Of a stretch of 64,000 nucleotides of DNA, positions 10,735-31,098 are shown one piece after another. A program made the translations under genes and the position numbers. The stretch spans positions 181,383-245,382 of the forward strand of contig CAVQHI010000001.1 of the NCBI GenBank assembly GCA_963712305.1, written 5' to 3'. Each line of letters opens with the position of its first letter. The first letter of the stretch is position 1. The notes beneath the pieces were generated by a model. That model ran no database searches, was not told the origin of the DNA, and saw only the letters and a program-made list of their open reading frames with translations. The stretch is from an uncultured bacterium (GTDB taxonomy: Bacteria; Bacteroidota; Rhodothermia; Balneolales; DATFMH01).

Positions 10735-11916
10735 CTATGATTTAAAATGCTTACCTAATTTAAGATCCTGTCCCTGGTAGTTGCTGTTTATTTCTTCGCC
10801 GTATATAAATTCGGGCGTTTCCGTGTTTGGTTCAAATACCATCCTAAAGAACGTCTGGCCATCCTCGATCAGAAACGGGACATCGTGAGATCGAACTTCG
10901 AGTACAGCACGCGCTCCGCCTGCTGCAACAGAACCACCAAAGCCTGAATCAAAGAAACCGGCATAATGAGTGCGTAGTTCCCCGGAGCCGGTATCGTAAG
11001 GAACCATTTCTGCAGCCAATTGTGCCGGAATTCGGCAGCGTTCTTTAGAAGAAAAGATATAAAAGGCCTCTGGTTCAAGGATAACGGCATTGCCATGATC
11101 CGCATAAATAGGTTCCCAGAAATCCACGACGTTATAATAATTGACACGGTCAAGATCGATCAGGTCACGGTTTTTACGTGCTTTATAGCCAATGATTTTA
11201 TCATTCGTCGAATTCAAACTCACACTCATGAATAGTCCGTCTTGTATCTTCAGATCCTTGTTACTAAGCGGCTTGCGCTGATCATCAAATAAGACCGGAT
11301 CCACCTGGTGAACCTTCGCAATATCCTGATCTGTCAATCGTGCTGATCCGTGTCTGATCCGCAACTGGTTTAGCCGGTGCCCGGTATGAACTCTGATTGA
11401 AAAGGTCTTGGGTACGACTTCAAGATATAGCTTACCCGAATAACCAGGTGTAATTTCTTCGAAACGATGCGAATAGTCTGTTATAACCCGTGTAAAAATA
11501 TCAAGCCGCCCGGTCGAGCTTTTGGGATTCGTCCTGGCGCTGAGCGGTTCGCGAAAATTCAGGCCTTTGCTGCCGGAACTTTGTATCAGCTCCCCATAAT
11601 CAGGAAGATGCACTTCTTCGAGCAACGGAATGATATAGGTGCAATTAGGTTCAAGAACGGCCCCATTAACGATGGAAAACGAATGCTGCGTGAGCCTCCC
11701 CAGCTTCTCTTCCACACTTTCACTTTCCGGCAGAAAGCTGCAACGTACCCTGTAAGCCGTTTCTCCAAGCCGGAGATCGATTGAATTCGGCTGAAGCTGG
11801 TTATCCTCGATGGGATAATTCTCCGGTGCGGTGATCAGGGATTCATCGATCAGCGTTCGTAATGTCTGAACAGGAAGGATGCCTGGTCTTGTGAGATTCA
11901 ATGTCTTAACCGCCAT
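10735..11916 (-). CDS. 2'-deoxycytidine 5'-triphosphate deaminase (long DCD-type, tandem dUTPase-like folds)
   Basis: LQPNSIDLRLGETAYRVRCSF and a second half with ELRTHYAGFFDSGFG. About 390 aa, as in the long DCD family. Confidence 0.75.
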   Translation of the reverse strand: MAVKTLNLTRPGILPVQTLRTLIDESLITAPENYPIEDNQLQPNSIDLRLGETAYRVRCSFLPESESVEEKLGRLTQHSFSIVNGAVLEPNCTYIIPLLEEVHLPDYGELIQSSGSKGLNFREPLSARTNPKSSTGRLDIFTRVITDYSHRFEEITPGYSGKLYLEVVPKTFSIRVHTGHRLNQLRIRHGSARLTDQDIAKVHQVDPVLFDDQRKPLSNKDLKIQDGLFMSVSLNSTNDKIIGYKARKNRDLIDLDRVNYYNVVDFWEPIYADHGNAVILEPEAFYIFSSKERCRIPAQLAAEMVPYDTGSGELRTHYAGFFDSGFGGSVAAGGARAVLEVRSHDVPFLIEDGQTFFRMVFEPNTETPEFIYGEEINSNYQGQDLKLGKHFKS

Positions 11917-12076
11917 ATCTATTTAAAGTGTGGAGTGAATAAAAGTACTTGAAGTCGAGCTCAAACTTAAAAGTTAAAATCAATTAAAGGTAATATGGGT
12001 TTTTTAAATTCTGACTCTCCAAATCAGCTACCCAAACTTTAAGTACTCTTAAGTATTTTAGGCACTCTTAAGTATT

Positions 12077-12547
12077 TCAAATGACACCCGCCAGTTCGTG
12101 AATTCGGTTCCATTCCTTTTCTGTAACCGGAGTTATGGACAAACGGAACCGTTTTAACAGCACCATATTTTTGAGGATTGGATCCTGCTTAATCTGGCCA
12201 CGTGTAACGGATTTGCCGAATTTTTTGTCAAATGTGACATCAACCAGTATCCATCTCGGATCATCTTCCGGACTCGTCGGATCAAAATAGTCGCTGTCCG
12301 GGTTGAACTGGGATTTGTCCGGATGCGGATCAGATGAGACCACCATTGTTCCCACGATTTCAGGTGGTTTTACATTCGAATGATAAAAAAGCACGCCATC
12401 CCCTTTTTTCATCTCATCACGCATGATATTCCGGGCTTCATAATTTCTCACACCATCCCACGATGTTGTCTGATTATCCGCATTCTTCAAATCATCAATG
12501 CTGAAGGCGTACGGCTCGGATTTCATCAGCCAATAATTTCGCTTCAT
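12077..12547 (-). CDS. EVE (PUA-like) domain protein
   Basis: NYWLMKSEPYAFSIDDL...SWDGVRNYEARNIMRDEMKKGDGVLFYHSN, the canonical EVE domain opening. 156 aa, stand-alone. Confidence 0.85.
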   Translation of the reverse strand: MKRNYWLMKSEPYAFSIDDLKNADNQTTSWDGVRNYEARNIMRDEMKKGDGVLFYHSNVKPPEIVGTMVVSSDPHPDKSQFNPDSDYFDPTSPEDDPRWILVDVTFDKKFGKSVTRGQIKQDPILKNMVLLKRFRLSITPVTEKEWNRIHELAGVI

Positions 12548-12766
12548 GTTACCTGTCTTTTATCAATGAATTCTGAACTGTGGGAAAGTAAGGAATTATG
12601 CAGGTTTTTCCGTGGATTGAAATCGATATCTTCACGAAAACGATGACACATCCATTTCCAAATTATCACGTCATTCTCTTGGGGATTTCCCTGGAAAATA
12701 ACGACGATAGAGAGAATGGATCGTTTTACCCGGGGCTACATTTTTTTCGAGAACATCTCTTGTACG

Positions 12767-13609
12767 TTATATTTCCAAATCTTCAACCGGACTTTTCACA
12801 TCTTTTAAAGTCCGGGAACTTACATGGGTATATATCTGCGTGGTAGAAATATGCTTATGCCCGAGCAACTCCTGGATAAACCGGGTATCGGTGCCATTAT
12901 CGAGTAAATGAGTGGCAAAGCTGTGTCGTAATGAATGCGGTGTTACTTTCTTTTTGATACCACACATTTTTCTGTGTTTTCTCATTAGAGCCTGAATGGA
13001 TGCGGCAGAATATTTACCACCGGATTGGCCTTCGAAAAGATATTCTTCAGGCCGATACTCCTTTACATATTCCCTCAGGAGAGACAAAACCTTATCCGAT
13101 AATATGGAGTAACGGTCTTTTTGTCCTTTTCCCTGATCGATACGTATTTGCATTCGGTCTGAATCAATATCTTTGATTTTAAGGTTCAAAATCTCTCCCA
13201 CTCGTAAACCGGCTGAATAGCATACGGTGAAAATAGCTTTGTGTTTGATATTGGTGAATGAATTTAGAAACCGCTGCACCTCTTCAACCGACAGGACAAT
13301 TGGAATACGACTGGGTTTTTTCATTTTGATGTTGAAATCAAAATCCACAGACTCGTTCAACACCTCTGTATATAGGAATTTAACCGAGGCCAATAACTGC
13401 TTCATCATGGAATAGCCGTAACCCAACTCTTTCCTGGCATAGTGAAAAAAATCCTCCAGAACCCGGGGAGTTACTTCATTGCATTGACGAACATTTACAT
13501 AATCCAGAAAAATAGTCAATCCATTGAGATAGGCACGCAATGTACGGTCGCTATAATTTTTCAGCGTAAGCTTATGTTCGTACTTTGATATTAATTCCGA
13601 TTTCCTCAT
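12767..13609 (-). CDS. Tyrosine site-specific recombinase, Xer/IntI-related but short (280 aa), without the IntI-specific insertion
   Basis: Catalytic signature AGLRVGEI...GKGQKDR...HSLRHSFATHLLDNGTDTRFIQELLGHKHISTTQIYTHV, with a C-terminal VKSPVEDL tail resembling the IntI V.SPLD end. Only ~60 aa separate GKGQKDR from HSLRH. Confidence 0.9.
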   Translation of the reverse strand: MRKSELISKYEHKLTLKNYSDRTLRAYLNGLTIFLDYVNVRQCNEVTPRVLEDFFHYARKELGYGYSMMKQLLASVKFLYTEVLNESVDFDFNIKMKKPSRIPIVLSVEEVQRFLNSFTNIKHKAIFTVCYSAGLRVGEILNLKIKDIDSDRMQIRIDQGKGQKDRYSILSDKVLSLLREYVKEYRPEEYLFEGQSGGKYSAASIQALMRKHRKMCGIKKKVTPHSLRHSFATHLLDNGTDTRFIQELLGHKHISTTQIYTHVSSRTLKDVKSPVEDLEI

Positions 13610-13630
13610 TTTATTTTCGTTATTGTAATA

Positions 13631-13701
13631 ATAACATGAACAAAACTTACGTACGAAGCAAGGATAACATGAATTGAGTTCGTGTTATGCTATTGTTGGG
13701 C
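13631..13701 (+). other. attI-like recombinase-proximal site (direct repeats, a 10-5-10 inverted pair, GTTATGC and GTTGGGC boxes)
   Basis: ATAACATGAA at 13631-13640 and 13664-13673. TTCGTGTTAT at 13679-13688 is its inverted partner. GTTGGGC at 13695-13701 is the exact complement of the R'' box at 15815. Confidence 0.45.
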
Positions 13702-13745
13702 GTCATTAAAGAGAACCCGAATAAACAATGAACAGAATTGAATAA

Positions 13746-15440
13746 ATGAAAGCAAACGAAACAAAAGTAGAAGACTTTTTATCTTCAAATAAGACACAAT
13801 TTGTAATTCCAGTTTACCAAAGAAATTATGATTGGTCGACAAGTCAATGCAAACAACTTTTAGACGATATTTTGGAAGTTGGAACAAGTAACAAAATGAA
13901 TGCTCACTTTATTGGTAGTGTTGTTTACGTTCACGATGATGTTTATACATCTTCACGAATCAAAGAACTGACTGTAATTGATGGACAGCAAAGATTGACC
14001 ACGCTGACTTTAATTTATTTGGCTCTTTATCGTTTGGCAATTGAAATTGGAGACAAAGGACTTGAAGCAGAAATTTCTGAAACCTATCTGACAAACAAGT
14101 TTGCACCCGAAGAAGAAAAACTAAAACTACGACCAACTGAAAATAACGACAAAGCCATAAAATACCTTTTGAGAAGTGATAAGGACGAAGAATTTAGCGA
14201 CTTCTCAAAAGTGATAGACAATTTCAATTATTTCAACAGTCGAATAAGTGAAGAAAATTTAGAGTTCGTTCTCAAAGGACTCGCAAAACTAATGTTTGTT
14301 GAAATCTCGCTTGACAGAGAAAAAGACGACCCACAAAGAATTTTTGAGAGTTTAAACTCCACAGGTCTTGAATTATCACAAGCGGACTTAATTAGAAATT
14401 ACATTTTAATGGGTCTTAATCGCAGAGACCAAAATAAAATTTATAACAACTATTGGGAAATCATAGAGAAACTTGCAAAAGATGAAACCCTTAATACAAG
14501 CAAAGTATCGGATTTTATTAGAGATTATTTGACTTTGGTAAATAATAAAATACCGAATAAAAGCAAGGTCTATTTAGAGTTTAAGGCGAAATTTCCAACA
14601 ACTGATTTACAAGAATTAGAAACTAATCTCTCGCCAATAAAATCACTTGTTAAGTTTTACAATAAACTGCTCAACCCCAAAAATGAATTTGACAAAGACA
14701 TAAGATTACAACTTGAATATATAAACCGACTTGAAGTAAATGTAGCTTATCCGTTTTTGATGAAAGTCTATGAAGATTATTCAGAAAACATAATTGACAA
14801 AGCAACATTTATCAAAGTATTGGATTTTATTCAATCTTTTGCTTGGAGACGATTTATAGTTGGCTTACCCACAAACGCTCTCAACAAAATATTTATGACA
14901 CTTTATGAAAAAGTGGATAAAGACGATTATTTGTTGTCATTACAAAAATGGTTGCTTAAAAGACCAGGTTCGCAACGTTTCCCGAAAAACAAGGAAGTTA
15001 TTGAAAGTCTTAAACTAAAAGATGTCTACAACATAAAGTCCAAAAACAGAACTTATCTACTTGAGCGACTTGAAAATTTTGATAATAACGAGCCTGTAAT
15101 AATAGAAGGGAACACAGACATAACAATTGAACACATTTTCCCCCAAAATCCTGACCCAAAATGGAAAGTTGATTTAGGAGCAGATGAATACAATTTGATT
15201 AAAGAAACCTATCTAAACACAATCGGTAATTTGACATTATCAGGCAATAACGGAAAGCTTGGTAATAAACCATTTGCGTTTAAAAGAGATTTAGAGAATG
15301 CAGGATATAAAGACAGTCGTTTATGGCTCAATAAATATTTATCAATTTCCGAAAAGTGGGATAAAGCAGAAATTGAAAGACGTTTTGACCTTCTTGCTGA
15401 ACGATTTTTGAAAATTGGCAAATGCCACAAATCGAATTAG
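13746..15440 (+). CDS. GmrSD-family type IV restriction endonuclease (N-terminal DUF262 ParB-like NTPase, C-terminal DUF1524 HNH-like nuclease)
   Basis: DUF262 motifs FVIPVYQRNYDW and IDGQQRLTTLTL. DUF1524 region has TIEHIFPQNP...GNLTLSGNNGKLGNKPF. Confidence 0.85.
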   Translation: MKANETKVEDFLSSNKTQFVIPVYQRNYDWSTSQCKQLLDDILEVGTSNKMNAHFIGSVVYVHDDVYTSSRIKELTVIDGQQRLTTLTLIYLALYRLAIEIGDKGLEAEISETYLTNKFAPEEEKLKLRPTENNDKAIKYLLRSDKDEEFSDFSKVIDNFNYFNSRISEENLEFVLKGLAKLMFVEISLDREKDDPQRIFESLNSTGLELSQADLIRNYILMGLNRRDQNKIYNNYWEIIEKLAKDETLNTSKVSDFIRDYLTLVNNKIPNKSKVYLEFKAKFPTTDLQELETNLSPIKSLVKFYNKLLNPKNEFDKDIRLQLEYINRLEVNVAYPFLMKVYEDYSENIIDKATFIKVLDFIQSFAWRRFIVGLPTNALNKIFMTLYEKVDKDDYLLSLQKWLLKRPGSQRFPKNKEVIESLKLKDVYNIKSKNRTYLLERLENFDNNEPVIIEGNTDITIEHIFPQNPDPKWKVDLGADEYNLIKETYLNTIGNLTLSGNNGKLGNKPFAFKRDLENAGYKDSRLWLNKYLSISEKWDKAEIERRFDLLAERFLKIGKCHKSN

Positions 15441-15832
15441 AAGAAAGAGATGAAAACAATGAAGTGAACATATTTGAAGCAGAAGACCCGAAATTTAAGA
15501 AATTGGAGTATGCGATTTTCTTCGACCAAAAAATTGAAGTTAATCAAGTTGCAAAATTATATGTAGAAGTTTTTAAGCAACTTTTTGAGTTGCAACCAGA
15601 AACATTTTTCACGACTGACTTGGCAGAAAAGATAATCTTAACAAAGAATCCAAAAGAAGGAAATCCGAGACAAGCAGTTCCAATAAACGACACATATTTC
15701 ATTGAAGGGAATATTGACAACATTGGAAAATTTGAGAAGATAAAACACGCATTGACAATTTTTGATTCAGAAGACGAATTGACAATAAAGTATGCCGGAA
15801 AAAGAATAACGAACGCCCAACAATGTGTATAG
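15422..15832 (+). CDS. Hypothetical 136-aa protein; either a separate gene overlapping the GmrSD gene by 19 nt or its frameshifted C-terminal extension
   Basis: ATG sits in GGCAAATGCC inside the last codons of the upstream ORF. No family recognised. The 3' end overlaps the attC-like R'' box. Confidence 0.5.
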   Translation: MPQIELEERDENNEVNIFEAEDPKFKKLEYAIFFDQKIEVNQVAKLYVEVFKQLFELQPETFFTTDLAEKIILTKNPKEGNPRQAVPINDTYFIEGNIDNIGKFEKIKHALTIFDSEDELTIKYAGKRITNAQQCV

Positions 15833-15946
15833 TGCATGCGGGTTTCATCGATTATCGAGAGTTTGTGGCTCGTAAAAAAGGTGCGGTGTAAGCTGATAGG
15901 AAATCGATTCGTAATCCCGCACTACACCATACACTAACCGTTGGGC
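15815..15946 (+). repeat. attC-like recombination site 1 (132 nt imperfect hairpin)
   Basis: GCCCAAC-AAT-GTGTAT-AGTGCATGCGGG ... CCCGCACTACACC-ATACAC-TAACC-GTTGGGC. This gives a perfect 7-bp R box, an unpaired spacer, a paired L-like box and bulged bases. The central part also pairs (ATCGATT... / ...AATCGAT). Confidence 0.7.
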
Positions 15947-15949
15947 GGC

Positions 15950-16270
15950 ATGCAAAACATCCTGCATATGGATACAGATGATTTATCAATAGAAGCTTAC
16001 GATGGAATTTTAATAGAGGCTGAGAAATTAACTCATGATTTGACTTTGCATTTTGGCCTATTATCTGGCGATTGTAGAAATGAGACTGAATACATTGATA
16101 AAGCAGAGAAACTTACCAGAGAAATAATGCAAGTGGATGATTGGGAGTTAGATGATCTGTTTTGGGGGAATCCACCGGACAAAGAAAATTTGAATTCAAC
16201 ACTTCAAAAAATTATCAGTAATATTGAGAAGATTAAGAAAATTCCGATAGAGAAACGACATTATGACTAA
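15950..16270 (+). CDS. Hypothetical acidic protein (~106 aa), first gene of a two-gene cassette
   Basis: The ORF track starts at TTG 15941, inside the attC-like R' box; ATG 15950 is the more plausible start. No family recognised. The stop overlaps the next start (ATGACTAA). Confidence 0.5.
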   Translation: MQNILHMDTDDLSIEAYDGILIEAEKLTHDLTLHFGLLSGDCRNETEYIDKAEKLTREIMQVDDWELDDLFWGNPPDKENLNSTLQKIISNIEKIKKIPIEKRHYD

Positions 16271-16766
16271 AAAAGAGATTAAGCAAAAAGAGGAGAAACT
16301 TCTTGAAATGACAGGAGCCTTTTGTGCTCAAAAATTAGATGATGATTATTTTCAGTTATGTGAAAAGTTAATTAAAAAGCTCGGGAGAAAAAGGGAAGTT
16401 CCTTTTCAGAGAGGTAAGATGGAGATTTGGGCAGCTGCTGTGGTTTATGCTATAGGGTCGATTAATTTTCTATTTGATAAGTCGTTTGAGCCATATATGA
16501 CAGCGGAACAGATTAGTGAATATTTCGGAACAAAAAACTCAACGGTATCGAATAAAGCCAGACAGATTAAAGATATGTTTGACATGTGGCATTTCAGCCC
16601 TGAATTTTCGACACAGAAAATGACAGAAGATAATCCGTTTAATAATATGGTAATGGTTGACGGATTTATTGTACCTCTGGATACTTTGCCAGCAGATTTA
16701 CAAGAGATGGTTAAGGATGCCAGGTCACGTGGAGAAGATATTGAATTTCAAACAGAACAGAGATAA
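16263..16766 (+). CDS. Hypothetical 167-aa protein with a helix-turn-helix-like segment
   Basis: MTAEQISEYFGTKNSTVSNKARQIKDMF resembles an HTH. Translationally coupled to the upstream ORF (8-nt overlap). Confidence 0.55.
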   Translation: MTKKEIKQKEEKLLEMTGAFCAQKLDDDYFQLCEKLIKKLGRKREVPFQRGKMEIWAAAVVYAIGSINFLFDKSFEPYMTAEQISEYFGTKNSTVSNKARQIKDMFDMWHFSPEFSTQKMTEDNPFNNMVMVDGFIVPLDTLPADLQEMVKDARSRGEDIEFQTEQR

Positions 16767-21260: not shown

Positions 21261-22262
21261 CTATCCACGATATTTCTGAACATACCAGCGAACGGTCTCT
21301 CCCAGGTTGGTGTCAAAGTCATGCTCCTTTTCCCAGCCCAGCTCCATCTCGATCTTATTAGGGTCGATGGCATATCGCAGATCATGGCCCGGACGGTCAG
21401 TGACGAAGGTTATCAGGTTTTTGTAATCCCCGTCTGGTCCTTCACCAACGATCTTGTTCAGCTGATCGGCTATCTTGCGAACGAGCTCGATATTCATCCA
21501 CTCGTTATGTCCGCCGATATTGTACGTCTCGCCGGGACGTCCCTTATGGAATACCAGGTCCAATGCCCGGCAATGGTCCTTCACATACAGCCAGTCGCGG
21601 ATATTTTCCCCCTTCCCATACACAGGGATGGATTTACCTGCCAGCGCTGTACGGATGACCGTTGGGATGAGTTTCTCATCATGTTGATTCGGGCCAAAAT
21701 TGTTGGAACAATTGGTCGTCACAGCATTTAAACCGTAGGTATGATGATACGCCCTTACCAGGAAATCACTGCTGGCTTTCGTTGCCGAATATGGTGAGTT
21801 TGGGGCATATGGAGTATGTTCGGTAAAGTACCCCTCCTTGCCAAGTGACCCATAGACTTCGTCAGTAGAGACGTGGTGAAACCGGAATTTTTCCAGTGGC
21901 TGCTCACTATTGGTCCAGCTTTGACGGCACTCTTCCAACAGATTGAAGGTCCCGACTACATTTGAAAGTACAAATGGCTCCGGACCGGAGATAGAATTAT
22001 CGACGTGGGATTCCGCCGCAAGATGTATGATCGCATCCGGTTGAAAGCGCAGGAACACATCCCGAAGAGCTGCCCTGTCAGTAATATCAATTTTCCTGAA
22101 GGTATAATTATTGTGATCCTTCACTTTATTGAGATACGCCGGATTGGAGGCATAGGTGAGTTTGTCGATATTCAGAATTTTGTAGTCAGGATACTTCTCG
22201 ATCAGATATGTGATAAGGTTCGAACCGATAAAACCGGCTCCTCCGGTAATGACTATATTCAT
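21261..22262 (-). CDS. rfbB: dTDP-glucose 4,6-dehydratase
   Basis: MNIVITGGAGFIGSN...HLAAESHVDNS...YSATKASSDFLVRAY. Confidence 0.93.
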   Translation of the reverse strand: MNIVITGGAGFIGSNLITYLIEKYPDYKILNIDKLTYASNPAYLNKVKDHNNYTFRKIDITDRAALRDVFLRFQPDAIIHLAAESHVDNSISGPEPFVLSNVVGTFNLLEECRQSWTNSEQPLEKFRFHHVSTDEVYGSLGKEGYFTEHTPYAPNSPYSATKASSDFLVRAYHHTYGLNAVTTNCSNNFGPNQHDEKLIPTVIRTALAGKSIPVYGKGENIRDWLYVKDHCRALDLVFHKGRPGETYNIGGHNEWMNIELVRKIADQLNKIVGEGPDGDYKNLITFVTDRPGHDLRYAIDPNKIEMELGWEKEHDFDTNLGETVRWYVQKYRG

Positions 22263-22271
22263 TGCTTTTTA

Positions 22272-22435
22272 TTTTAAATGACTATCCGTAATCAATACAA
22301 TTTCGTATAAATCCTTATTGGTTCACTCAATAAAGCCACAGAAACACTCCAAAAACTTCGGGACTCCGTGTATCTCCGTGCCTCTCTGCGGCAATTTATG
22401 CATGTGGCGCAATTGCGGATACTCCTATTATTATA
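22272..22435. repeat. MITE-like element filling the rfbC-rfbB spacer (family member 2, both termini present)
   Basis: Left end ATTTTAAATGACTATCCGTAAT at 22272-22293. Right end GCGCAATTGCGGATACTCCT at 22407-22426. The interior TCTGCGGCAATTTATGCATGTGGCGCAATTGCGGATA is the reverse complement of 47181-47217. Confidence 0.6.
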
Positions 22436-22988
22436 TTTGGGATAACGGCAAATCTGATGCTTCAACATCTTTAATTTTCGGCAGTTTCTGGTCTTTGGCC
22501 GATACAATCGGATCAAACGTCTTATCCCAGGGTATGTCCAAATCAGGATCCTGCCAGTTAACCCCACGTTCACCCTCAGGAAAATAATAATCGCTGCATT
22601 TATATTGAAAAAGCGCCTCATCCGAGAGGACCTGGAATCCATGAGCAAATCCTACGGGAATATAGAGCAAATATTTGTTCTCATCCGATATTTCCACAGC
22701 CACATGTTTCCCATAAGTCCGGGAACCTTTTCGGAGATCTACGGCCACGTCAATTACTCTTCCACGGGGAACCATCACCAACTTTGCCTGCGGTTTTCTC
22801 ACCTGGTAATGCAACCCCCGTATGGTACCTTTCTGCGATTTTGAAAAATTATCCTGTACGAATGGAGGAAGCCCGTTCTCGGTAAACGACGACGAGCGGT
22901 AGGTCTCCATAAAAAAACCCCGTTCATCGCCAAATATGCGAGGTTTTATCAGAATTACTTCTGGAATATTTGTCTTTACAAATTCCAT
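22431..22988 (-). CDS. rfbC: dTDP-4-dehydrorhamnose 3,5-epimerase
   Basis: FGDERGFFMETY...GTIRGLHYQ...KLVMVPRGRVIDVAVDLR...PVGFAHGF. Confidence 0.93.
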   Translation of the reverse strand: MEFVKTNIPEVILIKPRIFGDERGFFMETYRSSSFTENGLPPFVQDNFSKSQKGTIRGLHYQVRKPQAKLVMVPRGRVIDVAVDLRKGSRTYGKHVAVEISDENKYLLYIPVGFAHGFQVLSDEALFQYKCSDYYFPEGERGVNWQDPDLDIPWDKTFDPIVSAKDQKLPKIKDVEASDLPLSQI

Positions 22989-23039
22989 ATTACTATTGGG
23001 TGATTCGGCAGTTAACAGTAGAAAATTACACAGATCCCG

Positions 23040-23930
23040 TCATTCATTTTCGATGGGATCGTCTAAGGCATCAACGAGCTTGGCCAGTCCGGCTTTCCAG
23101 TCTTCTATGATGGCCCCGTCAACCGTTTTTAGCTTTTCGATGCATAGTTTTGAAAAACGGGGACGCGGCGCAGGCGTTGGAAATGCTTCTGTTGGTATCG
23201 AGTGAACCGGAATCTGTATGTTATTTAATCTCAACGTCTCGCATGCCAGATCGTACCAGCTTAAGAATCCATCAGAGGTGATATTCCAGGTCCCGGTCTT
23301 CCCTTTTTGCATCAAGAGCCAGCTATTGGCTACCACATTTGGAGTAAAAGAAGGTGATCCGTATTGATCCCCGACAACACGCAGTTCAGGCCTTTCCTTC
23401 CCCAAACGAATCATGGTCTTTACGAAGTTGTTCCCAAATGCTCCGCACAGCCAGGATATACGCAATACGAGATGATTTCCACCGGTCTTTCGCATCGCCT
23501 CTTCCCCCTTCCATTTGGAGAGCCCGTAGACATTGATCGGATCAGCCGGCGCATCCTCGGGATAGCCATCCGGATATTTCTTCTGATCCTCAGATGTCCC
23601 TGCAAATACGTAATCTGTCGAATAGTGAACAAGTGTAATTCCACGCTTTTCGCATGATTTACTCATGTTCGCAACAGCATCGGCATTTACAGAAAAGACG
23701 ACCTCATTTTCCGACTCTGCCCGATCCACCTGGGTATATGCCGAAGCATTAATTACGAATTGCGGCTGATCCTTGTCCAGGATCGAACGAACGGCCTCAT
23801 AATCGGTAATATCGAGCGTTGCAATCGTATATGGCTTGAAAGGAATGTCGTGCTTATTAAGAAAATACGTCCACTCCGTACCTAACTGCCCGTCCGCTCC
23901 AATAAGTACAACTGTGATATCGGACATCAT
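23040..23930 (-). CDS. rfbD: dTDP-4-dehydrorhamnose reductase
   Basis: VLIGADGQLG...INASAYTQVDRAESE...HYSTDYVF...YGLSKWKGE; 4-nt overlap with the upstream gene. Confidence 0.9.
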   Translation of the reverse strand: MMSDITVVLIGADGQLGTEWTYFLNKHDIPFKPYTIATLDITDYEAVRSILDKDQPQFVINASAYTQVDRAESENEVVFSVNADAVANMSKSCEKRGITLVHYSTDYVFAGTSEDQKKYPDGYPEDAPADPINVYGLSKWKGEEAMRKTGGNHLVLRISWLCGAFGNNFVKTMIRLGKERPELRVVGDQYGSPSFTPNVVANSWLLMQKGKTGTWNITSDGFLSWYDLACETLRLNNIQIPVHSIPTEAFPTPAPRPRFSKLCIEKLKTVDGAIIEDWKAGLAKLVDALDDPIENE

Positions 23931-24643
23931 TCCGATTTATTATGCTCAGACACGTACTGGTTGGCAACACGATAGGAAGAATGCGTTCCCGCATCTGTCC
24001 ACCAGCCATCAAGTACGGAATAACGCATGGCATTCTGTCTGATGTACTCGTTATTTACATCCGTTATTTCCAGCTCTCCACGACCGGATGGCTTAAGAGT
24101 ATGGATGATATCAAATACCTTATGATCATAAAAATAGATCCCGGTTACGCAAAATTCTGATTTGGGATCATCGGGTTTTTCCTCGATTCCGATAATCTTA
24201 TCCCCTTGTAGTTCGGGAACACCATAGCGTGTAGGATCAGGAACCTGTTTGATAAGGATTTGGGCCCCGCTGCCGGGATACTGCTCAGCTGCAGGCTGAA
24301 GTGACGTCTGGAAGATATTATCCCCTAGAATGACAATCATGTCATCGTCTCCGACAAAATTTTCTGCCAGGCTGAGGGCCTGGGCAATTCCACCGGCTTC
24401 ATCCTGCACTTTGTAGGTAAACCGGCATCCGAAATCTTTACCGGAACCCAAAAGACTGACAACGTCACCCATGTGGTCGGTTCCGGTTACAATCAGTATT
24501 TCTTCTATCCCACACTCCAGCAACCGATCAATGGGATAGTAAATCATGGGCTTTTCACCAATTGGCAACAAGTGCTTATTGGTAACTTTTGTAAGCGGAT
24601 ACAGTCTGGAACCCGTACCGCCGGCAAGGATAATTCCCTTCAT
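23927..24643 (-). CDS. rfbA: Glucose-1-phosphate thymidylyltransferase (short ~240-aa form)
   Basis: MKGIILAGGTGSRLYPLTKVTNKHLLPIGEKPMIYYPI..., in an rfb context. Confidence 0.8.
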   Translation of the reverse strand: MKGIILAGGTGSRLYPLTKVTNKHLLPIGEKPMIYYPIDRLLECGIEEILIVTGTDHMGDVVSLLGSGKDFGCRFTYKVQDEAGGIAQALSLAENFVGDDDMIVILGDNIFQTSLQPAAEQYPGSGAQILIKQVPDPTRYGVPELQGDKIIGIEEKPDDPKSEFCVTGIYFYDHKVFDIIHTLKPSGRGELEITDVNNEYIRQNAMRYSVLDGWWTDAGTHSSYRVANQYVSEHNKSE

Positions 24644-24718
24644 ATACGCAACTATTTAATTCTAAGCTTTTACAGGTTGTGATATTACAGTATTTCGAAC
24701 ACCTATAAAAATAATTAT

Positions 24719-25504
24719 TCACAATGTTATCGTTGGCAAACCAGCTTTATCCCAAACAACGTTGAGAGTTCTGGCTATTGTCTTTTTTAGCTGGTTCCAA
24801 ACTGGTTCATCCTTATCCCCGGCGTATTTTTGGTTCACTTCAAGCTCAATCCCACAATAACGATCCATGCCGAATTGTTTTCTTAAATAGGTGGTAAAAC
24901 CATCGGATTTCCCCAGGTACGGATAATTTCTCCTGACGATCCACTTCCCATCATATTCATTGATCTCCTTCTTCCATAACGCAGCCATTCTGCTTTCACG
25001 TGAACTGGCGGGATCATAAAGAATACCGATATCGGCCAAACGCTCATTATCCTCAAGCACCGGGGTAAATGAATGTATGGATACGTGAAAGACAAAATTT
25101 TCGGGTGATGTCATTTCTAATGCATTCGCTATCTGCCGCTGCACATTGATTCGAAAGGGAAGATAAAAATTATTGATGATTTCACCTTTCTCTCTGCGAG
25201 ATAAATCATTAGTAAATCCGGAGAACACCTTCTTGTGCCCTATTGATCGATTTACTTCCACCAATAATCTTGTGAATGGATATACAAATACAGGCACCTG
25301 AATCTCACGTGTTACCAACATTGTGAGGTTAAGAGCACCGATATCAAACCCTCGATGAGAATTCAATATGTGATCGTAACCTTCAAAGAGAGGCTTGTAC
25401 ATCTCTGGCACATGATTGCCGGCATGTTCACAAGTAATTATCAGATGCGGTTTAGTCCGCTGATAGCTGGATTCCATTTGCGAGACAGTCGCATAATTGA
25501 CCAT
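24719..25504 (-). CDS. N-formylglutamate amidohydrolase-family protein (FGase-like amidohydrolase)
   Basis: HLIITCEHAGNHVPE...NSHRGFDIGA...SIHSFTP. The start may be the internal Met (MESSYQ), because the annotated start overlaps the upstream gene by 53 nt. Confidence 0.75.
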   Translation of the reverse strand: MVNYATVSQMESSYQRTKPHLIITCEHAGNHVPEMYKPLFEGYDHILNSHRGFDIGALNLTMLVTREIQVPVFVYPFTRLLVEVNRSIGHKKVFSGFTNDLSRREKGEIINNFYLPFRINVQRQIANALEMTSPENFVFHVSIHSFTPVLEDNERLADIGILYDPASSRESRMAALWKKEINEYDGKWIVRRNYPYLGKSDGFTTYLRKQFGMDRYCGIELEVNQKYAGDKDEPVWNQLKKTIARTLNVVWDKAGLPTITL

Positions 25505-26717
25505 AAAGCTTTTTCAAATCATTTTTTCCCGGGGTTGACGACAAACGTCTGAGAATACGCGTAGACAAGGTCCCTTCATTAAATATAACTTTCAGTGACT
25601 GGTGTAACGGTGAAACAGATTGTTCGAAGTCTTTGTAAACCTTTGTGGCAATGTGCCGCCATAAATCACCGGCAGTTACTGATTCACCTTCAATACCAAA
25701 CAATCTCAAATATGAAATATTATCAATAGCAGTTTCTTCCGCATCTTGAATAGTACTCATCAGAACAAGATACAAATCCTTTTCATCCTGATTTTTCTGA
25801 TACTCATAGGTGCTCCACTTTTCCTGTGTCAAAGCCCTGACCGTGTCGATGACAAGGCTGACAATTGCCAAATCTGCCAAAGGGCATTCTTGTATATCCA
25901 GTAATCGTATTTCAATTGCATTCCGATCAAACCTGGCAATGGCTCCCCGTGAATTCAACCACTCATCCTGCAGTGTCTTTTCCGGATCAAACGGAGTGAT
26001 GTCGCGATACATCCGCTGAAAGATCTCCTTATCATAATCATCGCGGGTAAAAACTCTTTCAGGAATCATCCAGCCGGTAATCGATGGAATCTTTATGGCA
26101 TTGTTCCGGTATACCTCCAACCGGAAGTCAGCAAGTCCGGTCTGTCCGCCATCGGCTATAGGTGAACTCGCGGCAAGGGCTGGCAAAAGAGGTAAAACAA
26201 GACGAATGGCAGCATGTAATCGCCCAAATTCGTCGTCACCGTTAAATGGGAGATTAATATGTGTACTCTGCAAATTTGCCCAGCCATGACCTTTGCAGTT
26301 GAAGATACGATCATAGGCTTCATAAATGGGATTGTATTCGTGCGGCCAGAGATGCATCTCATTCCACGGGTCCATCCACGGATGCATGGCTGTCGGCATT
26401 AATCTTGCACTAAATGCTTCAAGACGCTCATTTATTTCGTTGACATGATTCTGAAACGCCTGAGGCAGAGGTTCGAGTGACTTGGCAGGTCCCTTGGTCT
26501 TTAGTTCGACCACGTGCAGAACAAGTTCATTAGACCAGGCTATTTCGCCGCGTTCCACCTCAGAGATGTATGATCCTGCAACAGACTTTAGTAGTTCATC
26601 TGTAATCGGCTTAATATCCAGCGTCTCGCGGTCGACGATCATATATTCCAACTCTACCCCAAAAGCTTCAAATAAATGGAGTATCCGGCCTTTTTTCGCT
26701 TCCGTCTCGATGATCAA
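25452..26717 (-). CDS. GCS2-type carboxylate-amine ligase (glutamate-cysteine ligase family 2-like)
   Basis: FGVELEYMIVD..., HINLPF, IEIRLLD; about 420 aa. Confidence 0.75.
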   Translation of the reverse strand: MIIETEAKKGRILHLFEAFGVELEYMIVDRETLDIKPITDELLKSVAGSYISEVERGEIAWSNELVLHVVELKTKGPAKSLEPLPQAFQNHVNEINERLEAFSARLMPTAMHPWMDPWNEMHLWPHEYNPIYEAYDRIFNCKGHGWANLQSTHINLPFNGDDEFGRLHAAIRLVLPLLPALAASSPIADGGQTGLADFRLEVYRNNAIKIPSITGWMIPERVFTRDDYDKEIFQRMYRDITPFDPEKTLQDEWLNSRGAIARFDRNAIEIRLLDIQECPLADLAIVSLVIDTVRALTQEKWSTYEYQKNQDEKDLYLVLMSTIQDAEETAIDNISYLRLFGIEGESVTAGDLWRHIATKVYKDFEQSVSPLHQSLKVIFNEGTLSTRILRRLSSTPGKNDLKKLYGQLCDCLANGIQLSAD

Positions 26718-28174
26718 CTCCTTTCCTTTTTCTGTTCAACTCTCCTGATGAAGACTTCCATAATTCGTTTGTAAAGCCGGTCTTTTATTACAGCATCTTC
26801 AAAACCGGATTCAATACTGGGATTGTCATTTACTTCGATAACATAACACTCATCATCCACCATCTTAAGATCTACTCCATAGAGCCCATCTCCAATCAGG
26901 TTTGCCGCTTTAAGCGCGGTCTTCACCACTTTCGATGGGGCCTCCTCTACCGTCAGGGTATCCACTTTACCTGAAAATGTTTTGCCTGGTTCTGTCCGGT
27001 CGTAGATTTGCCAGTGCTTGCGTGCCATGTGGTACTTACACACGTAAAGCGGCTGCTGATCGATGATGCCCACACGCCAGTCGTACGATGTCGGCAAAAA
27101 TTCCTGGGCAATGACCAGTTCAGACTTATTCAGCAATTCATCCAGATTCTTTTCCAGTTCGGACTCGTCCACTACTTTAACAACACCTTGTGAAAATGAA
27201 CTGTCAGGCTGTTTCAGGATAATGGGGAAACCAAGATGAGTTGCCAGATTTTCCGTGTTGTCTTTATGGACAATCACGGTTTTAGGCGTTTTTACATTAT
27301 GCCGTGTGAGCAACTCTGCCAGGTAAACCTTATTCGTACATTTGAGGATAGATTCCGGATCGTCAATAACAACCAATCCTTCCATGGCAGCTCTTCGGGC
27401 AAAACGATAGGTGTGATGGTTCACATTTGTCGTCTCACGAATGAAAAGCGCGTCAAATTCTGCCAGCCTGCCATAATCATCTTTCTGAATCAATTCTGTC
27501 GAAAACCCCATCTGTTCGGCGGCCTTCATAAATCGCTGAAGCGCCTTATCATCAGATGGAGGAAATTCTTCGGATGGATTATAGAGTACAGCCAAATCAA
27601 ATCGGCTGCTCTTCTTCCTGGCGATAGTGGCGTGCCGGCGCGTGAAGTAATCCTGCGCCATATCCACTAAAAAAGGTTTGTGATCTTCGGGAATTTCATT
27701 CAATGAGATCGGACCTATATTCTGTAGTGTCCACTTCTGCGTTTTGACAAAATAGGCCCTGAGAAGAGGCGATTGAAATTGTCGATACAATTCCTGGCAC
27801 AGGTGATCGTAGCGTTTGGCAACGTTCCGGCCGAAGTATATGCTAAGAGTAAATCGGTCGGATTGGATAGGTTTGAGATTTTTCTGTATCAGTTCATCCA
27901 ATTCATCCGATACAAACCGGACCATCGTCGGCGATTTCAGGTCTTGTATGGTTACCACATTCGGCAGAGGTTTATGACCACGGGCCGCAGCCAGTAGTGA
28001 TACATAGTAGCCCAGGCTCTGATAGCGGTATGATTTATTGAGGTTGAAGACTTTTGCATTTTTAAGATTCGTGTAGGCAGAATCCGTCAAATATGCACGC
28101 GCCGATACAATAGACACGTCCGGAACGTCAAGTGGCCAGTCCTTTGGGTTATTTACGACGATCAATATTTGCAT
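26714..28174 (-). CDS. RimK-like ATP-grasp amidoligase with an extended N-terminal (RLAN-type) domain
   Basis: C-terminal ATP-grasp: FPIILKQPDSSFSQGV, IAQEFLPTSYDWRVGII, YVIEVNDNPSIE. A ~200-aa N-terminal domain precedes it. ATGA overlap with the downstream gene. Confidence 0.8.
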   Translation of the reverse strand: MQILIVVNNPKDWPLDVPDVSIVSARAYLTDSAYTNLKNAKVFNLNKSYRYQSLGYYVSLLAAARGHKPLPNVVTIQDLKSPTMVRFVSDELDELIQKNLKPIQSDRFTLSIYFGRNVAKRYDHLCQELYRQFQSPLLRAYFVKTQKWTLQNIGPISLNEIPEDHKPFLVDMAQDYFTRRHATIARKKSSRFDLAVLYNPSEEFPPSDDKALQRFMKAAEQMGFSTELIQKDDYGRLAEFDALFIRETTNVNHHTYRFARRAAMEGLVVIDDPESILKCTNKVYLAELLTRHNVKTPKTVIVHKDNTENLATHLGFPIILKQPDSSFSQGVVKVVDESELEKNLDELLNKSELVIAQEFLPTSYDWRVGIIDQQPLYVCKYHMARKHWQIYDRTEPGKTFSGKVDTLTVEEAPSKVVKTALKAANLIGDGLYGVDLKMVDDECYVIEVNDNPSIESGFEDAVIKDRLYKRIMEVFIRRVEQKKERS

Positions 28175-28180
28175 GATACA

Positions 28181-28885
28181 TTATTCCTGAGGACGAATAA
28201 TCAATAGGTTGGCATCGTAAGTAATGATTCCAAGCATGATCGCACAGGTGACACGATCGATACTGACTTCATATTGATGGCCAAATCCCAATGGATTAAA
28301 TTTAAGTGGATCCGATACGAACACCTTTCTCTCTAACTTATCGTATCCGTGAATAATCACAAAATGTCCTGATGGATCTCCACGAATATCATCAAAATCC
28401 GCATTGGGACCAAACTCGCGAGCGCTCCTGTAAAGGTAAGTCGCACTTAATCCTGTAAGTATCGGCTGGTTACGTTTCACAAACTTACGGATCAAAGCAG
28501 CATTCAGATCTTCTAATTTCACTTTGCCGCCCAACTCCAGAAACTCAATATATCCTTTCGTAGCGAGTAAAAGCTTAGGATCTTTTTTAGCTTCAAGCTG
28601 TTTATACAACCGGTCGATGATAAAAGACACATCTTTCCCGAACCAGGTCGGATCGAACACCTGTAGATTGTAAGAATAGATGGTGGCCTTATAACCGCGC
28701 CGCAACGCATGACACCCCAAAAATACCCCGAGTGTACCTCCTTCATCCAGCTTATTCACCTCGTTAATTACGGAATCAAGGGGTACGTGATCATCAAAAA
28801 AACGATAGACTGTATGAAGACAAGTAGGTCCGCATGTTGTTTCATCCGGCTGGGGTAATATTTCGACAGGTAATGTGTTTCTCAT
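28181..28885 (-). CDS. Papain-fold (C39-like) cysteine peptidase-domain protein
   Basis: Candidate catalytic Cys in QPDETTCGPTCL and His in PSGHFVIIHGYD. First gene of the amidoligase operon. Confidence 0.6.
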   Translation of the reverse strand: MRNTLPVEILPQPDETTCGPTCLHTVYRFFDDHVPLDSVINEVNKLDEGGTLGVFLGCHALRRGYKATIYSYNLQVFDPTWFGKDVSFIIDRLYKQLEAKKDPKLLLATKGYIEFLELGGKVKLEDLNAALIRKFVKRNQPILTGLSATYLYRSAREFGPNADFDDIRGDPSGHFVIIHGYDKLERKVFVSDPLKFNPLGFGHQYEVSIDRVTCAIMLGIITYDANLLIIRPQE

Positions 28886-29082
28886 CAGCGATGATATTAT
28901 TGATATGTATTAATGAAAATTACGAAGAAATAACATCTGCACCATGATCTGGGGAAAATAATACACGTATTACCTATTACCGGACAAATACTATATGGAT
29001 GATTGGATGGATGGAAGACTGAATGGCTGATTGGACAGCCGAATGCAAATGACGCCCCATCGCTCTGTTGGTCGCTATTCTC

Positions 29083-29290
29083 TATCCTACACAACGACTG
29101 TCATTCTGATGTTCTTCGACTTGTCGAGGAATGTAGAATCCCGTATGCAATGGGCAACGGTTGTGTAACCTCCCCAAACCCCTCCACATCCGTGGGAGGG
29201 GCTTACGCACCGTGTACATATTTCGAGAGTTGCGCCCTGCGAACGAGATCCGCCTGCGGTCGTTGACAATCCGTTGTGTTCGGATTTCAG
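29083..29290. repeat. Structured intergenic repeat, copy A
   Basis: Direct repeat of 29422-29632. Contains hairpins CTTCGAC-TT-GTCGAGG (29114-29129) and CCCCTCCAC...GTGGGAGGGG (29179-29201). Confidence 0.7.
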
Positions 29291-29327
29291 GCGGTGTGTC
29301 GTAATCGTGGAGGAGGGGTAATCACGC

Positions 29328-29357
29328 GTAGGGGTAATCACGGGGGATTACCCCTAC
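29328..29357. repeat. Perfect 11-bp hairpin between the two repeat copies
   Basis: GTAGGGGTAAT-CACGGGGG-ATTACCCCTAC, preceded by a tandem GGGGTAATCACG (29315-29326 and 29331-29342). Confidence 0.6.
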
Positions 29358-29421
29358 GTTTAGAATATTCCGATTATTTTTTCTCTTTTTGCGTTGATTG
29401 TGCAGGATCGTCCATATACAC

Positions 29422-29632
29422 TATTGCTACACGACCTCTGTCATTCTGATGTTCTCCGGCTTGCCGGTGAACGTAGAATCCCGTATGCATTCATGCAACG
29501 ATTGTGAGACCTCCCTATCCCCCTCCACATTCGTGGAAGGGGCTTACGTACCGTGATTCATATTTCGAGAGTTGCGCCCTGCGAACGAGATCCGCCTGCA
29601 GCGGATGACAATCCGTTGTGTTCGGGATTCCG
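29422..29632. repeat. Structured intergenic repeat, copy B
   Basis: Offset ~340 nt from copy A. The equivalent hairpin is CTCCGGC-TT-GCCGGTG (29454-29469), with two compensatory pair changes. Confidence 0.7.
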
Positions 29633-29744
29633 TGTTCACGGATGACATCCGTTGTATTTTTGGTTGCTTGTTTAAGGATGACATTATCTATATTTCGCTG
29701 TTATTACTTGATTTATGAGGTGCGTACTGACCACACATACGAAC

Positions 29745-29780
29745 AACAAAAAAGGCCGTCCTCAAATGAAGACGGCCTTT
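29745..29780 (-). terminator. Rho-independent terminator of the pdh operon
   Basis: AAAGGCCGTC-10 nt loop-GACGGCCTTT, followed by a T run on the minus strand. Lies 23 nt past the E2 stop. Confidence 0.8.
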
Positions 29781-29802
29781 CATATTCCATTTATGTCTGG
29801 TA

Positions 29803-31098
29803 TCAGAGCAGCATACCCATCGGGTCTTCAAGAAGCTTCTTGAGTGTTGACAGGAATTCTGCTGCCATGGCACCATCGACAATGCGATGATCGCTTGACA
29901 ACGTCACTTTCATCCGCTTGCCCGGGACGACTTCACCGTTTTCGACAACAGGAACATCCCGAATCGCACCTACTGCAAGGATACAGGAATTCGGTGGATT
30001 GATGATTGCTGTAAATTCTTCGATGCCGAACATCCCAAGGTTACTGACGGAGAAGGTACTTCCTTCCCATTCTTCCGGCTGCAGTTTACGATCACGGGCC
30101 TTTTGCGCCAATTCCTTCGATTCGCGAGAGATCTGGCTGAGACCTTTTTGATCGACATTCCTAATAACCGGAGTGACTAGTCCATCCTCTATGGCAACAG
30201 CCATTGCAATATGAATCAAACCGTGTTTGCGGATAACATCACCCATCCAAGAGCTGTTTACTCCAGGATGACGACGCAATGCTACGGCACAGGCTTTAAC
30301 AACAAGATCATTGAAGCTGATTTTAACATCGCTCACCTCGTTCAACCGGCTGCGAATATCGACCACATTCTTCATATCGATATCGGTAGTCTCGTAGAAA
30401 TGAGGACTGGTAAACTTACTTTCTGCAAGACGGCGGGCAATAGTCTTGCGCATTTGAGAAATGCGAACATCTTCATCACCGGCCGTTTCAACAGGCTGAG
30501 CGGAAGGTGCAGCGGCTGGCGACGGGGCTTGTTCTTCGTATTCTTCAATATCCCGTTTTACTACGCGGCCATTCGGACCTGAACCCTGAACGCTGCCAAG
30601 GTCGATCCCCTGGTCTTCGGCCATCTTTCGCGCAAGCGGTGAGGCCTTAATCCGGCCATTTGCTTCAGATCCTTCCTTAACGGCTTCTTTCTGTTGATTA
30701 TTCAAACCGCCGAATATCGGATCAAATGACTTCCCTGAGTCTTTCTTGTCTGCTTTTGATTGATTCGAACCACCGGCCTCAGCATCAGCAGGAGCTTTTT
30801 CTTTTTTAGACTCTTCTTTGGAGACGGCTTCACCTGAGACGAGTCCGCTTATATCTTCACCTTCATCTCCGATGATGGCAATCTTCTTTCCGAGAGGCAC
30901 AGAGTCACCTTCACTGGCGAGGATTTTGAGGATTGTGCCGGAATCAAAGACTTCCACATCCATCGTTGCCTTGTCGGTCTCAACTTCAGCAATGATATCT
31001 CCGGATTCGACCTTGTCTCCTTCTTTAACTTTCCATTTCGCAATGACACCTTCCTCCATGGTATCACTGAGTTTTGGCATATCAACTACTACTGCCAT
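29803..31098 (-). CDS. pdhC: Dihydrolipoamide acetyltransferase (E2 component, pyruvate dehydrogenase complex)
   Basis: Lipoyl domain MPKLSDTMEEGVIAKWKVKEGDKVESGDIIAEVETDKATMDVE, E3-binding ASPLARKMA, catalytic DHRIVDGA. Confidence 0.92.
   Translation of the reverse strand: MAVVVDMPKLSDTMEEGVIAKWKVKEGDKVESGDIIAEVETDKATMDVEVFDSGTILKILASEGDSVPLGKKIAIIGDEGEDISGLVSGEAVSKEESKKEKAPADAEAGGSNQSKADKKDSGKSFDPIFGGLNNQQKEAVKEGSEANGRIKASPLARKMAEDQGIDLGSVQGSGPNGRVVKRDIEEYEEQAPSPAAAPSAQPVETAGDEDVRISQMRKTIARRLAESKFTSPHFYETTDIDMKNVVDIRSRLNEVSDVKISFNDLVVKACAVALRRHPGVNSSWMGDVIRKHGLIHIAMAVAIEDGLVTPVIRNVDQKGLSQISRESKELAQKARDRKLQPEEWEGSTFSVSNLGMFGIEEFTAIINPPNSCILAVGAIRDVPVVENGEVVPGKRMKVTLSSDHRIVDGAMAAEFLSTLKKLLEDPMGMLL

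Follow-up and report, generated by a model that had tools for sequence, protein, structure and literature searches.

A composite palindromic repeat in the pdhC-C39 peptidase spacer of a Balneolales bacterium, a possible new low-copy family

The 64,000-nt stretch of DNA analysed here (i.e. the window; contig CAVQHI010000001.1 of assembly GCA_963712305.1, from an uncultured Balneolales bacterium) contains a spacer of 917 nt (28886-29802) flanked by pdhC (29803-31098) and a gene for a C39-like peptidase (28181-28885), both on the minus strand. The peptidase gene is the first of an operon that continues with RLAN/RimK ATP-grasp, GCS2 and FGase genes (i.e. the amidoligase operon). The spacer holds a non-coding composite element of ~550-600 nt, consisting of a palindromic unit, a linker and a second unit. 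The intrinsic terminator of pdhC (29750-29781, minus strand) lies outside the element and forms its upstream limit; it is kept in the closest lineage (L022) and a homologous hairpin is found in two further relatives (L002 and L017). The operon-proximal region of the peptidase gene (28886-28948, minus strand) is likewise outside the element and is kept in all relatives, with BLAST homology to L002, L017 and L018 stopping at 28948-28963. The ~120 nt that separate this region from the nearer unit (28949-29069) have no counterpart in relatives and hold a 16-nt tandem repeat (28995-29026) and CATCC-rich repeats. As an independent metagenome contig (L001) has a spacer identical to that of the window, an assembly artefact is excluded. 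No coding signal was detected in the element and its translations were without Pfam matches. In protein-level searches, open reading frames (ORFs) called over the element matched themselves and no other homologues, the single exception being an 84-aa ORF that is considered below. In Rfam searches, no part of the window matched a family at its gathering threshold, and nothing relevant appeared at E-values of up to 10 for the spacer and up to 0.1 for four related loci.

A preliminary description of this spacer had reported two direct copies of a structured sequence. These copies were confirmed at 29087-29290 and 29427-29632, with an offset of 340-342 nt, and differ by 26 substitutions and three indels over 203 columns (~86% identity; BLAST E = 3e-61). 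For each unit, left and right refer to the sequence as read on the minus strand (i.e. the strand of pdhC and the operon). Unit B (29427-29632, minus strand) is a full pseudo-palindromic unit of ~205 nt, detected by nhmmer with E = 1e-57. Unit A (29070-29290, minus strand), in direct repeat with unit B, includes a conserved flank of ~17 nt past its inverted-repeat end; this flank (GGTCGCTATTCTCTATC on the plus strand, 29070-29086) is common to unit B and to the units of two other loci, L023 and L025, in alignments. The extension of the conserved unit to ~29070 had been missed in the preliminary description, as had the terminal inverted repeats and two-fold pseudo-symmetry of each unit and an array of extra end copies with a 36-nt period.

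Terminal inverted repeats of ~20 nt with a TGTCATCC core were present in every unit of the window, L018, L022, L023 and L025. In unit B, the left repeat (29603-29625; ACACAACGGATTGTCATCC on the minus strand) is complementary to the right repeat (29427-29446; CTACACGACCTCTGTCATTC on the plus strand), and the equivalents in unit A lie at 29261-29283 and 29087-29106, respectively. The unit end in L018 reads CCCCAAATACAAAGATATGTCATCCTG. Other TGTCATCC sites occur in the window (e.g. at 18216, within a 148-aa ORF), and are not copies of the element; neither the profile hidden Markov model (HMM) nor the covariance model reported a copy at any of them. Each ~205-nt unit is a half of ~110 nt that has been inverted and duplicated. 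The half comprises the end motif ACAAnGnAT-TGTCATCC, a GC-rich hairpin of 9-15 bp, a conserved GTAGRATCYCG block and a small second hairpin. A conserved central hairpin marks the junction of the halves and forms the axis of symmetry (29519-29542 in unit B and 29179-29201 in unit A). A covariance model of the right half alone (i.e. R1, 115 positions), which scored 137.6 bits on 29432-29546 of unit B, found the opposite-strand left halves of L022 (45.3 bits, E = 2e-9), L023 (39.4 bits) and L025 (37.6 bits), with E-values of 2e-9 to 2e-7. Similarly, the family HMM matched the units' own reverse strand, with E-values of 3e-10 in the window, 2e-10 in L023 and, in a third match, 4.5e-4. The end-proximal right hairpin, for which covariation had been described, lies at 29452-29471 in unit B (TTCTCCGGC-TT-GCCGGTGAA) and at 29112-29131 in unit A (TTCTTCGAC-TT-GTCGAGGAA). 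The other stems named at that time, CCCCTCCAC/GTGGGAGGGG at 29179-29201 and GTTGCGC/GCGAAC, were also present. An inverted placement of the L018 and L022 units relative to the genes was considered and rejected, the syntenic orientation fitting at least as well; both orientations align because the unit is itself symmetric.

The linker (29291-29426) lies between the units and belongs to the dispersed composite. It contains a perfect hairpin, GTGATTACCCC-type repeats (29314-29355) with a period of 16-17 nt, and an A/T-rich stretch. The hairpin between the copies had been described as having 11 bp; it extends to 13 bp (29327-29358), while the repeats said to precede it were found as described, as two copies of AGGGGTAATCACG at 29314 and 29330. 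A second array (29603-29684) is formed by three copies of the GGATGACA core of the end repeat at 29603, 29640 and 29676, for which Tandem Repeats Finder gave a period of 36 and 2.2 copies; the middle copy presents a hairpin and then a T-run on the plus strand.

Evidence for dispersal came from the 84-aa ORF (29090-29341, minus strand). A phmmer search of 1.84 billion representative proteins with this sequence produced one match, P0135 (E = 2.4e-5), whose locus (L023/L024) lies between a SPOR-domain gene and convergent UPF0014/ABC transporter genes and is unrelated to pdhC. The whole architecture is repeated there at 10124-10615 of L023, with a full unit ~85% identical to unit B, a linker, and a shortened second unit that has both ends. 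The linker of the window is ~80% identical to that of L023 (10341-10488), in which the same GGGGTA hairpin is accompanied by 3.9 copies of a 16-nt GTGATTACCC repeat. In the orthologous locus L025, the first unit is present, the linker has been deleted and the second unit is truncated. As the unit-linker-unit order recurs at L023, the apparent tandem duplication in the window is part of the design of the element and not a local accident. It is plausible that the window and L023 belong to one genome.

Long and short hairpin forms, truncated units and a variable copy number of the minisatellite were observed among these loci, a modular variation that is typical of repeats resembling transposable elements of the miniature inverted-repeat type (MITEs) or doublets of repetitive extragenic palindromic (REP) sequences. 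The short form of the left hairpin (ATCCGC/GCGGAT) occurs in the window units and in unit 2 of L023. Comparison of window 29593-29610 with L022 4127-4170 and unit 2 of L025 showed that the long and short forms differ by two symmetric deletions of ~10 nt between short direct repeats (i.e. ATCC...ATCC and GGAT...GGAT). This change of form occurs in place, since the second unit is short in L023 and long in its orthologue L025.

Orthologous pdhC/C39 loci of relatives were fetched through the flanking proteins. In L002 and L017, the flanking genes are 77% identical to those of the window, and the spacers, of 127 nt and ~80 nt respectively, lack the element and hold just the terminator hairpin and the conserved ~63 nt beside the C39 gene. 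In L018/L019 (GCA_035266485.1), the flanking genes are 93% identical to those of L017, yet the spacer has 468 nt and contains a pair of units. These units are 95-97% identical to each other, with a period of 236 nt, and are scored by the family HMM at E = 1e-41 and 1e-26; they share with the window units blocks only (i.e. the TGTCATCC ends, GTAGRATCCCG, ATCGTTGC and ACGAGATCC). In the closest lineage (L022; flank identity 85%), a unit immediately follows the conserved terminator. The short-read metagenome contigs of L022 and L020 stop inside a unit (at 4230 and 3094, respectively), which suggests that the repeat breaks assemblies. A comparison of L018 2971-3030 with L017 8348-8410 showed that L018 is without the pdhC terminator hairpin kept by L002, L017, L022 and the window; the repeat array of L018 begins ~40 nt past the pdhC stop codon, and hence pdhC transcripts in this lineage must run into the element. 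In L022 (2718-3997, a JGI contig), pdhC was called as two ORFs of 246 and 147 aa, reflecting a frameshift or sequencing error.

These comparisons bear on the position of the element relative to the amidoligase operon. The preliminary description had placed the element upstream of this operon; the placement stands, but a tie to the operon does not, because two relatives (L002 and L017) lack the element and the composite recurs at an unrelated site. A tandem riboswitch or attenuator on the minus strand, acting as a cis-regulatory leader of the C39-peptidase/ATP-grasp/GCS2 amidoligase operon, would lie upstream on the same strand, as the element does, and some riboswitches share its tandem arrangement. 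However, L002, L017 and L003 have this operon without the element upstream of it, and in L023/L025 the composite is found between unrelated genes that converge. The 63 operon-proximal nt that are kept in all relatives, and that probably bear the promoter, are downstream of the element, and none of the Rfam families matched. A leader function for the amidoligase operon is thus effectively excluded.

Base pairing was examined across the copies. The two double compensatory changes of the preliminary description were exact (i.e. T29116>C29456 with A29127>G29467, and A29119>G29459 with T29124>C29464), and a fifth change in this hairpin, G29128>T, converts a U.G pair into U.U. The right hairpin reads UUCCUCGAC/GUCGAAGAA in unit A and UUCACCGGC/GCCGGAGAA in unit B, with a U.G intermediate in L023 (UUCUUCGGC/GCCGGAGAA) and an A.C intermediate in L025 (UUCUUCGAC/GCCGAAGAA). 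The left hairpin reads TTATCCGC/GCGGATAA in L022, TTGTCCGC/GCGGACAA in L023, TTTCCCGG/CCGGGATAA in L025 and CGATCCCGG/CCCGGGATCG in L018, while the central hairpin exhibits one double change, from C-G to U-A, in L022. Pairing was therefore kept in three hairpins across lineages despite changes of sequence. Single-sequence folding z-scores were modest (-2.2 to -3.2). Consensus folding of four full units gave z-scores of -4.8 and -5.6 against column shuffles, with both strands alike. Structure-preservation tests on the two window copies were weak, with P values of 0.005-0.27 depending on strand and reference copy. Covariation across the four full units was not significant, the observed value being reached by 113 of 500 shuffles with few sequences and low power; double changes were seen in two of 39 pairs and the alifold covariation term was ~0 (4-5 sequences, low power). 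The claim of selection on structure, as opposed to a decaying duplication, thus held for folding potential and the maintenance of hairpin pairing and failed for the significance of covariation and for strand preference. Intermediates with G.U or A.C mismatches were found on both strands and, with folding equal on the two, nothing singles out an RNA made from one strand. Templated correction within quasi-palindromes can keep pairing without selection on an RNA, and the pairing pattern is explained equally well by such correction or by a requirement for single-stranded DNA.

The same data bear on a reading in which the units are paralogous genes for a structured small RNA of ~200-220 nt, possibly domesticated from a palindromic repeat. 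We regard this as the main rival to the reading favoured below, a serious but minority possibility. Such an RNA would start at CTACAC on the plus strand, just past a conserved GGTC..TAT.C.CTAT, and would end at the long GC-rich hairpin followed by the T-rich end repeat; it would expose a C-rich stretch, CCUCCCC..CCCCUCCAC, able to pair with G-rich ribosome-binding regions. Consensus folding well above that of shuffles, double or stepwise compensatory changes in the three hairpins, and the better conservation of the right half-unit and left end between orthologues than of flanking genes (see below) are consistent with this reading. So are the conservation, across two loci, of ~20 plus-strand nt lying upstream of the unit, the hairpin and T-run after unit B on the same strand, and the T-rich end repeats after the long hairpin in L018, L022, L023 and L025. 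Tandem paralogous small-RNA genes are known, e.g. PrrF1/PrrF2 of Pseudomonas, and the window resembles these in having two intergenic tandem copies of ~86% identity with a hairpin after each on one strand. In contrast to genes of the PrrF1/PrrF2 type, the Balneolales units have palindromic symmetry and inverted-repeat ends, without strand bias or a convincing promoter; a 200-nt two-fold palindrome with such ends is typical of repeat DNA and not of RNA genes. No strand preference was evident in folding or wobble pairs, covariation did not reach significance, and most stems are invariant in sequence, without covariation. In addition, no convincing -35/-10 promoter precedes unit A, the T-run is ~5 nt away from the stem, the L018 units are without the C-rich stretch, and no Rfam model recognised the element.

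Conservation between the orthologous copies L023 and L025 was unevenly distributed. Identity is 78-82% in the coding flanks, rises to 87-90% over the 108 nt from the central hairpin to the right end (i.e. the right half-unit) and to 88-91% in the left-end region, and falls to 35-40% over all columns in the linker and second unit. Conservation above that of coding flanks keeps a functional reading alive, whether as an RNA or as DNA recognised by a protein. A domesticated palindromic repeat, in which the right half-unit (~110 nt) and end motif are under purifying selection stronger than that on neighbouring genes, is unlikely, in our estimate; here the Balneolales unit would encode a conserved structured RNA of ~200 nt or serve as substrate for an undescribed DNA enzyme that recognises hairpins, and the two-unit composite would be a functional module.

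Two other explanations are touched by this conservation. A local tandem duplication of ordinary spacer, now decaying and with paired changes produced by chance or by templated quasi-palindrome mutations, would be in keeping with the presence of only two copies in the window and with the weak two-copy structure tests. Homologous units at another locus and in other lineages, a two-unit architecture conserved there, and the orthologue conservation exceeding that of coding flanks all contradict it. The conserved folding, the retained hairpin pairing and the conservation of part of the unit above flanking genes together indicate that the element is not merely a decaying local duplication; this highly improbable explanation can be considered as already refuted. 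An array of host sites that work as double-stranded DNA is improbable. In this case, a DNA-binding protein (e.g. a nucleoid-associated, recombination or regulatory factor) would recognise the TGTCATCC ends with their 36-nt phasing, the GTGATTACCCC minisatellite and the palindromes, which accords with the conservation of block sequences and not of pairing alone, the in-phase repetition of end motifs, the iteron-like 16-nt repeats in the linker and the similar behaviour of both strands. No candidate binding protein was identified, however, and none is encoded beside either locus; the stems change in sequence yet stay paired, which double-stranded recognition does not require, and L002 and L017 do without the element at their pdhC site.

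We favour, with modest confidence, the reading that the element represents a new family of low-copy, MITE- or REP-doublet-like palindromic intergenic repeats in a Balneolales clade. The units are small (~205 nt) and contain no transposase or other real gene. Further evidence in favour comprises the two-fold symmetry, the terminal inverted repeats with their extra end copies, the recurrence of the composite at L023/L025, its variable presence at the pdhC site, the lack of strand asymmetry in folding, the missing Rfam family and coding signal, and the modular variation. The element would be non-autonomous mobile or recombinogenic DNA of the MITE or REP-doublet kind, placed in 'safe' intergenic sites by an enzyme that is encoded elsewhere and may recognise the end motif and hairpin. 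Pairing in the hairpins could be kept by recognition by this enzyme, or by templated quasi-palindrome correction without selection on an RNA. If read through from the upstream gene, the unit would fold as a long branched hairpin and is a candidate 3' stabiliser or terminator.

Several observations weigh against this reading. The known genomic sites are two only (i.e. pdhC/C39 and SPOR/UPF0014), and neither the 64-kb window nor about 110 kb of relatives' loci yielded another copy with nhmmer --max or with a covariance model run with filters off; a first search of ~171 kb with the unit HMM had also found no further copy. Inspection of the outer boundaries of the window, L018 and L023 copies revealed no direct repeat indicative of a target-site duplication; the copies are old (78-86% identical). 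No cognate transposase was found, with neither DDE nor Y1 domains among the 45 large window ORFs scanned. The L018 array has taken the place of the ancestral spacer, together with its terminator, rather than cleanly interrupting it. Conservation of the half-unit above coding flanks exceeds the expectation for a neutral relic. Scans of genome and metagenome contigs used blocks that are not conserved in the family and say little on abundance. The preliminary description had held that many dispersed copies with terminal inverted repeats and target duplications would make the element an ordinary MITE; terminal inverted repeats, dispersal and presence/absence polymorphism were all found, but with two sites in place of many copies and no target duplication seen.

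The contig scans gave some matches that were examined and set aside. A 20-mer, GAGAGTTGCGCCCTGCGAAC, had one match among genome contigs, within a gene of an Acidobacteriota metagenome-assembled genome, which was judged to be due to chance. A 25-mer, GAGAGTTGCGCNNNGCGAACGAGAT, had seven matches among metagenome contigs (L009-L015), all in the coding motif for the 'RELRxANEI' leucine zipper of IS3 OrfA. This match covers 22 of 22 specified bases and coincides with the longest invariant block of the unit (29225-29249 and 29567-29591). Derivation from an IS3-family remnant was rejected as a coincidence, there being no similarity past the motif and no protein-level or Pfam support. Scans of viral contigs returned nothing or chance 17-mer matches, and a BLAST search for distant matches against plasmids found none. 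A useful signature of the family is TGTCATYCTG-N15-45-TAGRATCCCGTATG.

Comparison with known repeats places the element closest to two groups. Proteobacteria and Firmicutes have well-documented small palindromic repeats; in Balneolota or Rhodothermota, to our knowledge, such repeats have scarcely been described. The defining features of MITEs are terminal inverted repeats, target duplications, the absence of a transposase gene and the presence of multiple copies (PMC3184786). Like MITEs and MITE-like repeats (i.e. Correia, ERIC/IRU, pneumococcal BOX and BrickBuilt), the Balneolales element is small, non-coding and intergenic, has terminal inverted repeats, can fold over the whole unit as a large imperfect hairpin, is present or absent between related strains and has had spurious ORFs called across it. 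The modular build with a variable number of internal modules is shared with pneumococcal BOX. BrickBuilt of Porphyromonas gingivalis, a MITE with an internal minisatellite (PMC4596501) from the same Bacteroidota-Chlorobiota (FCB) group, likewise has its minisatellite between leader and tail parts. Unlike MITEs, the element has neither an observed target-site duplication nor a known matching insertion sequence, and its composite has two full palindromic units with parts conserved above coding level between orthologues; the named families have 19 to hundreds of copies, as compared to the two documented sites here.

REP sequences are GC-rich palindromes of 20-40 nt with an unpaired GTAG tag 5' of the hairpin, and their dimers fold as one large hairpin with structured spacers (PMC3733652). 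An accompanying RAYT gene and a copy number of tens to hundreds are further marks of this group. With RAYT-mobilised REP dimers, REPINs and BIMEs, the element shares two short GC-rich inverted hairpins and a structured spacer within one large stem-loop, a conserved GTAG beside each hairpin, clusters that reiterate dimers with flanking DNA, a position downstream of genes and a per-site copy number that varies between relatives. The GTAG of the Balneolales unit is, however, 3' of the hairpin (i.e. hairpin-N-GTAG, the mirror of GTAG-hairpin) and partly paired, and for this reason the element was not filed as a REP. The partner hairpins are also ~125 nt apart as compared to 1-100 nt, the unit is far larger (205 nt) with additional inverted-repeat ends of ~20 nt, and no RAYT (Y1 transposase) gene was seen in the window. 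No GTAG repeats were reported in Bacteroidetes-group bacteria in a survey of such sequences (PMC3733652). Known dispersed repeats with a hairpin-plus-T-run appearance share a preference for gene 3' ends, among them those of convergent pairs like the one at L023; they differ in having no sequence relation to the element, which has a T-run that does not adjoin the stem and a much larger, palindromic unit.

The 205-nt two-fold palindrome, the minisatellite linker joining two units and the conservation of parts above coding level between orthologues are uncommon features. Should the conserved half-unit turn out to be an RNA or the substrate of an enzyme, the known repertoire would be extended in a modest but genuine way. 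The element might be misread as a riboswitch belonging to the amidoligase operon; its presence probably breaks short-read assemblies and gives rise to spurious 'hypothetical proteins' in public records. Two such proteins were called across the element, VKA08_05555 (144 aa; L018 3031-3465, minus strand, in GCA_035266485.1) and P0135 (132 aa; L023 10001-10399), and both are almost certainly spurious.

Elsewhere in the window, dTDP-rhamnose genes (rmlA/D/C/B-like) come after the amidoligase operon (C39-like peptidase, RLAN/RimK ATP-grasp, GCS2 and FGase), together covering 21261-28885, and the same gene order was found in all Balneolales relatives fetched (L002, L005, L017 and L018). A cluster at 10735-16766 resembles a small defence or mobile islet, with genes for a DCD-like dCTP deaminase (10735-11916), an EVE-domain protein (12077-12547), a tyrosine recombinase (12767-13609), a GmrSD restriction endonuclease (13746-15440) and a DUF6398 protein (16263-16766). 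Type IX secretion system (T9SS) sorting domains were present among the window proteins, in keeping with the FCB group.

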